A stretch of DNA of 64,000 bases from contig CM000434.1 in assembly GCA_000165345.1 (NCBI GenBank), positions 1,152,001-1,216,000 of the forward strand, read 5' to 3'. The notes under the pieces are model-generated. The model ran no database searches. It was not told the DNA's origin and saw only the letters and a list, made by a program, of their open reading frames with translations. Shown here in pieces: positions 53,304 through 61,439 of this stretch. Positions within the stretch are counted from its first letter, which is position 1. Each line of letters opens with the position of its first letter. The position numbers were made by a program, and so were the translations under genes.

Positions 53304-56300
53304 TCATCCTTGAGTGATTTTACGTTTTAATGAGTTTGCTAAATCTCTCAAAGTACATATATTATTTGAATAGTAGTTATCTTGTTGATTAGATGTAGAA
53401 GAAGAATACTGATTCATTTGATTAGAACTACTATTAACTGATAAAAGACTTGAAAGAAGTGTTCCTGCTGATGAAAACATGTCATTATTTATAAGAAATT
53501 CCATCTTTGAATCAGATTTTATTGATTTATTATGACAATATTGTGCTATTTTGTGCATTTGTCCTTGATTTGGGAGAAGACTTGTTAATACAGAAATTTC
53601 CTCATCTTTTTCTTGACTTTGGTCAATTTCAGAATTATTACCATAATTTTGATTAATTTCTGAACTTAATACCAGCATTCCAATCAAATAATATCTTGAA
53701 ATTGGTAATATTAATGAACTAGATTTCTTATTAGATGTATTTCCACTGAAAAATAGTCTATTAGAATCTTCATCAGTAATGTTACATGGGAATATCCATA
53801 GTTTTACATCTCCTATAAGATTATTCTTTTCAACCATCTCAAATTCAAAGATTTCATAATCTTCAAAATTATAATTATAGTGGAATATACGACTAAATAT
53901 CTTACTCTTACAAAATCTCAAATGATGAGACCAGTTTGAGGAGATTAAAACCACAACTGAGTTATTTCCTAATGCTTTTCCTACTAAATCCATTGAATGT
54001 TTTACTCCATTATACCTTAAATCCAAGCAACCACTCATTTCTTTTATTATATTATCATTTCTCTTAGTAAATTGATTACTTATTTGGTAAATTCCTATTT
54101 CTAGAATATCCTCATCTCCAGTTTCTTGATCTCTTCCAAAACTTAACCATCCTAACCATGTAAATTTCAACTCACTCTTAATTCCTTCATGGCTTTTTAA
54201 TCTCTCAGAATGAACAATACTCCCTCTTCCTTCTTCTCCTTCTCCTTCTGCTTCTTTCTCTTCTTTCTTCTTCTCTTCCTCCTCTTTTTCTTCCCTCCCA
54301 TCCATTACTTTCCTTCCATCCATATTAGTAACTATTTCTGAATTCATTTCAATCTTTCTCTTTTTAGCATCCTCAGCTTTAGAATTCTTCATTTTTAGCC
54401 TGACTGAGACTTGAGATTTATCAATACTATCCTCAAGTACATTCTCTACTTCTTTTCCTGCACCTCTTCCTCCTATTCCTTCTTTTCCTGCTCCTGCTCT
54501 TCTTTCTCTTTCTCCTCCTCCTCTTTCTCCTCCTCCTCCTCTTTCTCCTTCTCTTTCTCCTCTTCCTCCTCTTCCTCCTGCTCCTTCTCTTTCTGCTTCT
54601 TCTCTCCTCTCATCTTTAACCCGTTTCTTCCTGGTACTCTTACTCACCTTATTCTGATTTTCAATTTGAATCAACTGATTAATCCATTTATCTTGTCCAA
54701 AAATCATCCATTTACTATTCAATTTCTCAAGTTGATCTGGGTATTTGGATAAATTTGAATAAGAAGAATGGTCATCATAGCTCTTTATCTTAAAAGATTT
54801 AAGCATTAATCTTAAAGAATAATCCATCGCATCTTTCAAATATTTATCCAAAACTTTAAAAAGATTATCAATAGAAAGCTGATCTTCTGTACCAAAAGCA
54901 TCCAAATACAAAGAATGATCTTTCTTCTTAATATAATCTTGATCATCTTTATTATAAAAAGCTTTGAATATATACTCCAAATATTGTCTTACATAACTTC
55001 TTAAAAAATAAAAACTGTGAATTGGTTTTAATGAATAAGAAATACGTCCTATTGACCATTTAAAATCTATCTTATCCATATTCTCCTTAATATAATATAT
55101 ATTACTTATTAAACCAAATCTTGCATCTTTTATCCCACATATTGAAACTTGTATCTTATTCTTTCTCAAAAAATGATGTATTAATCTATTATCTACTCGA
55201 CTAAATACATTAAAACTTCCTAATTGATATTTATTATCATCATCACCAACAACCTCTGAATTTTGGATCTTGAAAAAATCCTGTCTCATGATCAACTCCA
55301 TATCTAATATACCCAAATAATTACTCAAATAATCACCAATATCCAATATCCCAATCATTGAATTAAAATTATTACATTTATTTTCTTGTTCAAAATAATA
55401 TAAATATCTCAATACACAATGATTAATTAAATATTCTTCATTATCTATATTATTTATATTAAACGATACCTTCTCCATTAAATATCTACAACAAGATAAT
55501 AAACATTCTAAAATTATAAATTCACAACTCTGAAAAACTCCTACATTTATATTAATTTCATTCTTTGGAAATTTATACCAAGACAAAAATTCTTCATATA
55601 TTCTTCTCAAAACACTATATTCCAAAATTGGAACAAAAATCTTCTTTCTATCCCCTTCTTTATGATCTTGTAATTCATTCAAATCTACCCATCTATGATT
55701 ACTTCCATATATCAAAAAATATCTTAAAATACCTCTAAAAAACTTCATATAACATCTATATAAAATCTCTGATGATAATTTTGATTCATTAATCCATTTC
55801 CTTAATTCCATCATTTTTAATAAATATTCCAAATTATGAGACACGATACCTTTTAATTCTTGTTTCGTCTCAAGATCATAATTATTTTCAAGATCACTCA
55901 TTTTATTTAAAATTGAATTCAAATTCTTATCTGTCAAAATTGAATTATTAAAATATTTATCAAGTATTTCAAATCCTTTAAATGGTAAAATATTCAGAGA
56001 TTTATTTAAAACTTTGAAATTTGGAATTAATTTAACCCATTTTTTAGAAATTAATTCATAGACTATTTTTTGACTAATTCTTGGAGGATATATTATTTTC
56101 TCAAGAAGTAAAGAATTCTTGGTTTTTGTTTCAAATCTTGAGTTTTCTTTTTCATCTTGTTTAATTTCTTTTAAAGTTTTTAAACTTATTTCTTCTAATT
56201 CTGATAATAATTTCTTTTTATTTTCTAAATTATCTATTAATATTGAAATCTCTTTCAAATTTAAACAATCCAAAGAAAATGATCTTATTTTTTTAATATG

Positions 56301-61439: not shown

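Follow-up and report, generated by a model that had tools for sequence, protein, structure and literature searches.

Exon structure of a long Cryptosporidium parvum open frame whose first ATG lies at a TA microsatellite

Introduction

Where does translation begin in a very long open reading frame (ORF) whose only upstream ATG sits at the edge of a TA repeat? The ORF in question occupies positions 53304..61439 on the minus strand of a 64,000-nucleotide (nt) stretch of Cryptosporidium parvum DNA (assembly GCA_000165345.1, contig CM000434.1, positions 1,152,001 to 1,216,000), which we call the window and whose numbering is used throughout. A first-pass annotation, made from the letters alone, had described this 2711-codon frame as a single-exon gene for a low-complexity protein and had offered three candidates for its start: a non-ATG codon, a distant 5' exon, or a repeat that is in fact stable. 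We found that the frame is most probably exon 2 of a two-exon gene that starts at 62323, is interrupted by an intron at 61661..61336 and encodes a 2897-residue product, and from the sequence comparisons below we put the probability of this structure at about 0.87. The intron also appears to host an H/ACA small nucleolar RNA (snoRNA). The puzzle comes down to an ordinary gene-model problem, now resolved, and public models of five sister species already show the two-exon structure. Possibly new, though modest, are a corrected model for C. parvum, C. hominis and C. tyzzeri, the SPOC-like C-terminal domain, and the SNORA19-like intronic H/ACA RNA.

Coding frame and base composition

The 2711-codon frame is coding, as first proposed, because the chance of so long an open frame is tiny: at the composition of the ORF (A 0.42, T 0.36) stops are expected at ~10% of codons, and the probability of meeting none is ~1e-130. 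Over the same interval the other two frames of the strand carry 256 and 458 stops. The high local AT content described earlier is also borne out. GC lies at 0.18–0.28 along the gene, the most AT-rich stretch of the window, versus ~0.29–0.37 over most of the remainder, though equally low values are found outside the gene at 50001..54000 (0.24–0.26) and 62001..64000 (0.26). The window belongs to C. parvum chromosome 6: a 221-residue ORF that lies upstream and the product of a neighbouring gene are both identical by residue on the chromosome 6 records CP029785.1, CM109966.1 and BX526834.1. From CP029785.1 the window differs by 3 bases along the 9-kb gene. Two overlapping ORFs, 60797..61303 on the minus strand and 54411..54752 on the plus strand, we put down to frame artefacts of the large gene and set aside.

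Exon structure and splice sites

The upstream ORF (61658..62323, 221 codons) is cgd6_5120, annotated as a 'PHD Zn finger-containing protein'. An in-frame stop lies 8 codons 5' of its ATG at 62323, and the merged orthologue models described below begin at the equivalent MLNDRECIIC or MLDDRECIIC. The end of this ORF reads ...CAA AAG TAA GTT T, and its TAA falls inside a splice donor, AAA|GTAAGTTT, at 61661. The acceptor that the first-pass annotation had noticed at ~61335 is real: TTCTTTCTTTTCAG|G (TTTTCAG|G) at 61336/61335 follows a polypyrimidine tract and is in phase with the upstream exon. The two exons, 662 and 8032 nt, sum to a multiple of three, and the joined frame of 2897 residues has a single, terminal stop. 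The first-pass annotation missed this in-frame 5' exon, which lies 326 nt upstream of the acceptor, because its search ended at 220 bp; the single-exon gene that it described falls with this exon. The donor octamer GTAAGTTT also opens the annotated intron of the MPP6 gene 9 kb away, at 52781, and occurs 8 times in the window versus 3.2 expected.

Orthologous loci and gene models

Orthologues were collected in two steps, an exhaustive representative search that took the C-terminal 318 residues as query and then a profile search, and all of them come from Cryptosporidium; word-indexed searches with N-terminal and C-terminal queries had given just one metagenomic relative, or none. Nine complete loci were compared: two C. 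parvum assemblies, C. hominis, chipmunk genotype I, C. ubiquitum, C. canis, C. felis, the species represented by SRR31860986, and C. xiaoi. All nine have the phase-2 end of exon 1 and the donor GTAAGTTT, and all nine have an acceptor that restores the long frame 210–444 nt after the donor. Position and phase are thus conserved while length and sequence drift, as in a spliceosomal GT-AG intron. A tenth, partial metagenomic locus has the same donor. The junction peptide QGQK|FRKSIIKSLRDE is conserved across the loci, and in every orthologue the conservation of exon 2 sets in with its first codons (FRKSIIKSLRDE...). The orthologues share the gene order TYW2, this gene, MPP6, GPI mannosyltransferase, SGT1.

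In five sister species the public models already join the two exons. The C. meleagridis model (POM83077.1 / KAK9172346.1; 2777 residues, 'PHD-zinc-finger like domain protein') crosses the junction as ...SLEQGQK|FRKSIIKSLR, identical to the junction predicted for C. parvum. The other joined models are those of C. canis (KAJ1606051.1, 2758 residues), C. ubiquitum (cubi_02641, 2814 residues), C. sp. chipmunk genotype I (2807 residues) and C. felis (2753 residues), the last two both named 'protein with two PHD Zn fingers'.

The TA repeat and alternative readings

The rival that starts translation at ATG 61439 yields a single-exon gene for 2711 residues with a hydrophobic, signal-peptide-like N-terminus, as annotated on CP029785.1 and BX526834.1. 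The frame is indeed open from that ATG, two deposited C. parvum annotations begin there, and the C. canis orthologue is called 'signal peptide-containing protein', a label that a false hydrophobic N-terminus may underlie. However, the 35 residues that the 2711-residue model adds (MYIYIYIYIYTHIYHSCFKLIPSFKLFLFIFFLFR) are translated TA repeat and polypyrimidine tract and end in the consensus acceptor; the ATG merely resembles a start because (TA)n and the tract happen to be free of stops in that frame. Length comparison of the repeat among isolates, a check proposed at the outset, showed that it is one TA unit (2 nt) longer in CM109966.1, where the ATG is out of frame and meets a stop at codon 44. 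The depositors of CM109966.1 fell back on the next in-frame ATG, codon 208 (Met208) at 60818, for a 2498-residue model. In C. hominis the ATG is absent (CAATCAATATATAT...), the repeat is 18 nt shorter, and the longest TA run is 14 nt versus 28 nt in the window. The ATG has no counterpart in seven other species: across the compared loci, the stretch from the snoRNA to the acceptor lacks an in-frame ATG in every other species, and runs of ≥3 TA units there are limited to C. parvum and C. hominis. When four C. parvum sequences and C. hominis were aligned over the whole gene, the indels of 2, 7 and 11 nt all fell in the TA region, and indels that are not multiples of three were confined to the intron; those in exon 2 measure 6, 6, 12, 30 and 48 nt, every one a multiple of three. 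The joined orthologue models, moreover, take the PHD exon in place of the repeat. We therefore give the single-exon gene next to no credence, and on these comparisons ATG 61439 is an accidental intronic ATG and not the start codon. The first-pass annotation was right that the ATG is there and right to doubt it as a start. Among its candidates the distant 5' exon held up; a non-ATG start is not needed, nor is a stable repeat, the repeat being unstable.

A different rival takes the locus as two independent genes, a 221-residue PHD protein and a large protein that starts at Met208 or at a non-ATG codon, with the snoRNA as a separate intergenic gene between them. The deposited annotations of CM109966.1 (2498 residues) and C. 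hominis (221 + 2476 residues) follow this division, and Li et al. (2022, PMC9465071) report intergenic positions for some C. parvum snoRNAs. Yet the ~170 codons that precede Met208 in exon 2 show conservation at the protein level, an invariant DIWTLR..FLSL being one example, and their indels are all multiples of three. Met208 itself is not conserved: C. canis, C. xiaoi, C. bovis and the SRR31860986 species have S or L at this place. In addition, the PHD ORF never has a stop beyond the one inside GTAAGT, and the phase across the spacer is preserved at 9/9 loci despite spacer lengths of 210–444 nt. We consider two separate genes very improbable. About as improbable, in our judgement, is that both forms exist, a full-length spliced messenger RNA (mRNA) and a shorter one that lacks the PZP module, is driven by an intronic promoter with the TA repeat as a TATA-like element and starts at Met208, the repeat length tuning one or both. 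The TA repeat is polymorphic, which bears on this idea only indirectly, and Met208 is kept in the clade of C. parvum, C. hominis and C. meleagridis; but C. parvum and C. hominis alone carry the repeat, and Met208 is not conserved more widely.

Several observations weigh against the two-exon gene, or against its exact boundaries. A second in-frame acceptor, GTTTAG|, lies 6 nt downstream of the first and would begin exon 2 at 61329; sequence alone does not choose between the two, and the C. ubiquitum model takes the downstream one. UniProt F0X6G4, a 224-residue model of cgd6_5120, uses the same donor with a different but nearby acceptor. Two separate genes are annotated in three GenBank C. parvum assemblies, C. 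hominis, C. tyzzeri, C. xiaoi and C. bovis. Finally, a pattern for the exon–exon junction had 0 matches in a scan of metagenome contigs, the sole collection scanned. The spliced 2897-residue sequence is not in the protein collection that was searched, where C. parvum large products are apparently absent altogether, so its absence says nothing on current CryptoDB models. A full-text literature search for cgd6_5110/5120 found no mention of them.

The F0X6G4 model ends in ...QGQKLYY: from donor 61661 it passes to an acceptor, CACTGAG|, in the snoRNA region and takes its stop from an intronic TAA (window 61611..61661). It is probably a prediction artefact.

The intronic H/ACA RNA

A conserved H/ACA-type snoRNA is present in the intron of every Cryptosporidium locus examined. 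In the window a hinge rich in A (AAACUA) separates its two hairpins, and its ACA box, at 61483-61485, precedes the 3' end by three bases; the pocket strands GTTCATTAGTT (61531-61541) and AACCAGTCGGCTG (61490-61502) are invariant. Five species folded separately all gave hairpin, hinge and hairpin with ACA three bases from the end (z-scores −3.3 to −5.0). In an alignment of nine sequences the ACA is invariant (9/9), the pocket columns never vary, and 94% of cells are paired versus 30–52% in controls with the partner strand slid. Compensatory changes on both sides were found in 9 of 24 pairs versus 3.0 ± 1.4 in shuffles, none of 500 reaching 9. The hinge H box (ANANNA) reads AAACUA in C. parvum and C. 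canis and AAAGAA in C. ubiquitum; C. felis and the SRR31860986 species have no perfect match by eye. At the partial metagenomic locus exon 1 has just 40% protein identity, yet its intron has the window's GCAGTTCATTAGTT and AACCAGTCGGCTGT. A metagenome scan for the snoRNA motif had 0 matches.

Searches of Rfam returned SNORA19 (RF00413) as the top family in C. parvum and C. xiaoi and, in the metagenome relative, as the top match over the snoRNA region. The scores of 22.4 bits (window), 24.1 bits (C. xiaoi) and 20.7 bits (metagenome relative) stay below the SNORA19 gathering score of 80 bits in all three species scored. Because of the conserved hairpin-hinge-hairpin-ACA fold, the compensatory changes and the invariant pocket strands, the element at about 61480..61623 (minus strand) is, as far as fold and covariation can tell, an H/ACA guide RNA, though not a certified SNORA19 member. 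SNORA19 itself targets U3709 and U863 (PMC8759569).

The C. xiaoi intron is 444 nt long (3550..3993 of its locus sequence), with ~170 extra bases upstream of the snoRNA that include a GTGATGA box-C-like motif; Rfam at E ≤ 1 reports the H/ACA element only in this intron.

The N-terminal PZP module

Exon 1 encodes a PZP module, that is, a PHD finger (C4HC3), a zinc knuckle and an extended PHD. Two Pfam profiles score above their cut-offs, PF13771 (E 2.1e-12; 47.5 bits, cut-off 29.1) and PF13832 (E 3.8e-10; 40.4 bits, cut-off 27), while PF00628 (21.4 bits, cut-off 24) and PF13831 fall just below theirs. The C4HC3 pattern of Cys and His ligands is visible in the translation, and the PZP domains of JADE1, PHF14 and AF10 are its closest solved relatives in sequence.

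The exon 2 protein and its repeats

The product aligns with its orthologues over its full length, with 12–82 identities per 100 residues against C. canis. Identity amounts to 80% in C. meleagridis (exon 2), 46% in C. canis and 31% in C. xiaoi. The earlier description as a low-complexity protein does not fit such an alignment; judged by it, the 'low-complexity' composition is AT bias laid over a conserved protein, plus a few short repeat inserts. The repeats themselves are all present as described: (TCTGAA)7 encoding (DS)n, the DDGNN units and ERGGG. The (TCTGAA)n repeat has 7 copies in the window, 5 in CM109966.1 and BX526834.1, and 2 in C. hominis. Between the PZP module and the C-terminal domain, ~2300 residues gave no Pfam match, TFIIS_M included, in C. 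parvum and three orthologues.

The base composition of the gene shifts strongly within the one genus, from ~20% GC in C. parvum to 47–48% at the C. canis and SRR31860986 loci, with protein identity of 44–46%. The purine-rich C-terminal repeats show 6-nt and 48-nt length differences at 54249 and 54543 (minus strand).

The C-terminal domain

The first-pass annotation had suggested that the last ~300 residues might fold and had asked for a structure prediction. AlphaFold2 run on the 305 C-terminal residues with 4 sequences gave a model that was not usable, with a predicted local distance difference test (pLDDT) of 33. When the 180-residue core (residues 2606-2785) was modelled with nine orthologues, pLDDT rose to 71.7 with a predicted template modelling score (pTM) of 0.75. 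The model is a seven-stranded β-barrel with flanking helices, similar to solved SPOC domains, and the top ranks in Foldseek are the SPOC domains of SHARP and RBM15 with probability 1.00. The Pfam SPOC profile PF07744 was not matched, there being no Pfam match at E up to 10 in four orthologues, and searches of PDB sequences with C-terminal profiles returned chance matches only. We thus describe the domain as a predicted SPOC-like barrel on the strength of the model.

SPOC domains are readers of phosphoserine and of the RNA polymerase II C-terminal domain (CTD) (PMC9834408, PMC8526623, PMC10111866). A candidate for the arginine of the basic, phosphoserine-binding patch lies in the motif DLRYNG. 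C. xiaoi and C. bovis have Q at this site, and to equate the residue with SPEN R3552 is no more than a guess. The domain may instead be a SPOC-like domain that does not bind phosphate groups, as in SPOCD1 or TASOR.

Neighbouring features

The features of the gene and two further features of the window are collected in Table 1. In the ORF lists, the MPP6-family gene just downstream appears as just a 102-codon ORF with a TTG start. The octamer GTAAGTTT occurs further at 27789, 39648, 40789, 41620, 41743 and 60157, several of these sites at or near ORF ends, and they may mark further introns missed by a prokaryote-style reading of ORFs.

Table 1. Features of the two-exon gene model and its neighbourhood, in window coordinates
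Feature	Position	Strand	Description
Exon 1	61662..62323	−	662 nt, ends in phase 2; residues 1-220 and two bases of codon 221
Start codon ATG	62321-62323	−	884 bases upstream of the ATG at 61439
PZP module	61703..62305	−	residues 7-207; PHD finger (C4HC3), zinc knuckle, extended PHD; from Pfam and PDB relatives
Intron (predicted)	61336..61661	−	326 nt, phase 2, GTAAGTTT ... TTCTTTCTTTTCAG; begins GTAAGT, ends CAG
H/ACA-type snoRNA (predicted)	61480..61623	−	~144 nt, in the intron, sense orientation; from fold, covariation and a weak Rfam match
ATG opening the 2711-codon frame	61437-61439	−	immediately before pure (TA)14
Microsatellite	61398..61436	−	(TA)14 + CACATATATA; intronic; from Tandem Repeats Finder (TRF)
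Exon 2	53304..61335	−	8032 nt including stop 53304-53306; residues 221-2897; in-frame continuation of exon 1
Repeat encoding DDGNN units	56922..56989	−	
(TCTGAA)7	56383..56425	−	encodes (DS)n; in-frame length variation
Purine-rich repeat	54456..54616	−	encodes an E/R/G-rich stretch; 48 nt shorter in C. hominis, far shorter in C. meleagridis
C-terminal conserved domain	53643..54182	−	residues 2606-2785; predicted SPOC / Ku-barrel-like fold
MPP6-family gene	52739..53168	+	just downstream; 79-nt intron 52781..52859 with donor GTAAGTTT
Transfer RNA gene	19011..19092	+	56.4 bits; the only above-threshold Rfam match of the window

Discussion

In several deposited annotations of C. parvum, C. hominis and C. 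tyzzeri this one gene appears as two, a 221-residue PHD protein and a product of 2500–2700 residues. Merging the two recasts the product as a probable large nuclear chromatin and transcription factor in place of a secreted low-complexity protein. The pattern that revealed the missed intron, an ORF with its stop inside GTAAGT followed by an ORF without a conserved ATG, can serve as a rule elsewhere, as can the contrast between indels that are multiples of three and those that are not. The isolate-variable in-frame (TCTGAA)n, the purine-rich C-terminal repeats and the intronic (TA)n could be typing markers.

Judged by its domains, the protein probably acts in the nucleus as a chromatin and transcription factor. 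By analogy with JADE1, PHF14 and AF10, the N-terminal PZP would bind the N-terminal tail of histone H3 and possibly DNA. The ~2300 conserved residues without a recognisable domain would act as a scaffold. A partner would dock at the C-terminal SPOC-like barrel and could be a phosphorylated one, as for PHF3, DIDO, SPEN and RBM15 (PMC9834408, PMC8526623), perhaps a motif with phosphoserine like that of the RNA polymerase II CTD. The snoRNA would be freed from the spliced-out intron, and its presence is a likely reason why a genome poor in introns has kept this one. Four H/ACA and four intronic snoRNAs of C. parvum are listed by Li et al. (2022, PMC9465071), who suggest that such RNAs help intron retention, and a conserved intronic H/ACA RNA fits the idea that non-coding RNAs do so in an intron-poor genome. 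A bolder proposal would make the protein a genus-restricted third SPOC architecture (PZP ... SPOC-like, beside TLD-SPOC and RRM-SPOC) that physically links H3-tail recognition to a partner carrying phosphoserine, for instance the CTD of RNA polymerase II, its sole intron being kept solely for an essential guide of ribosomal RNA pseudouridylation. We offer it as speculation and think it unlikely in this full form.

Comparison with known systems

The public orthologue models represent the same gene, with the same two-exon layout and the same junction, at an exon 2 identity of 38–80%. Unlike these joined models of sister species, the C. parvum records split the gene into cgd6_5120 (221 residues) and a product of 2711, 2670 or 2498 residues. 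The RNA in the intron shares its layout with intron-hosted H/ACA snoRNAs, the base of its upper stem lying 14 nt from the ACA, and its 3' pocket strands (UUCAUUAG / CCAGUCGG) are nearly the same as the SNORA19 consensus (uUAAUUAG / CCAGUCu).

On the protein side, the C4HC3 PHD, zinc knuckle and extended PHD of the C. parvum protein are those of the PZP readers JADE1, PHF14, AF10 and BRPF1, with zf-HC5HC2H above its cut-off. The EPC-like, bromo, PWWP and OM-LZ regions of PZP histone readers were not detected in it by Pfam. The C-terminal model matches the SPOC domains of RBM15, SHARP, SPOCD1, PHF3 and FPA as well as related barrels from the same Pfam clan, those of Ku, MED25 and Sld7 (PMC10111866). 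SPEN, RBM15 and FPA combine SPOC with an RRM, and PHF3 and DIDO carry a TFIIS-like domain between PHD and SPOC; neither an RRM nor a TFIIS-like domain was found in the C. parvum protein by Pfam. The pairing of a PHD-type reader with a C-terminal SPOC, here a predicted one, is nevertheless that of PHF3 and DIDO, and the PZP lies at the extreme N-terminus, as it does in AF10.

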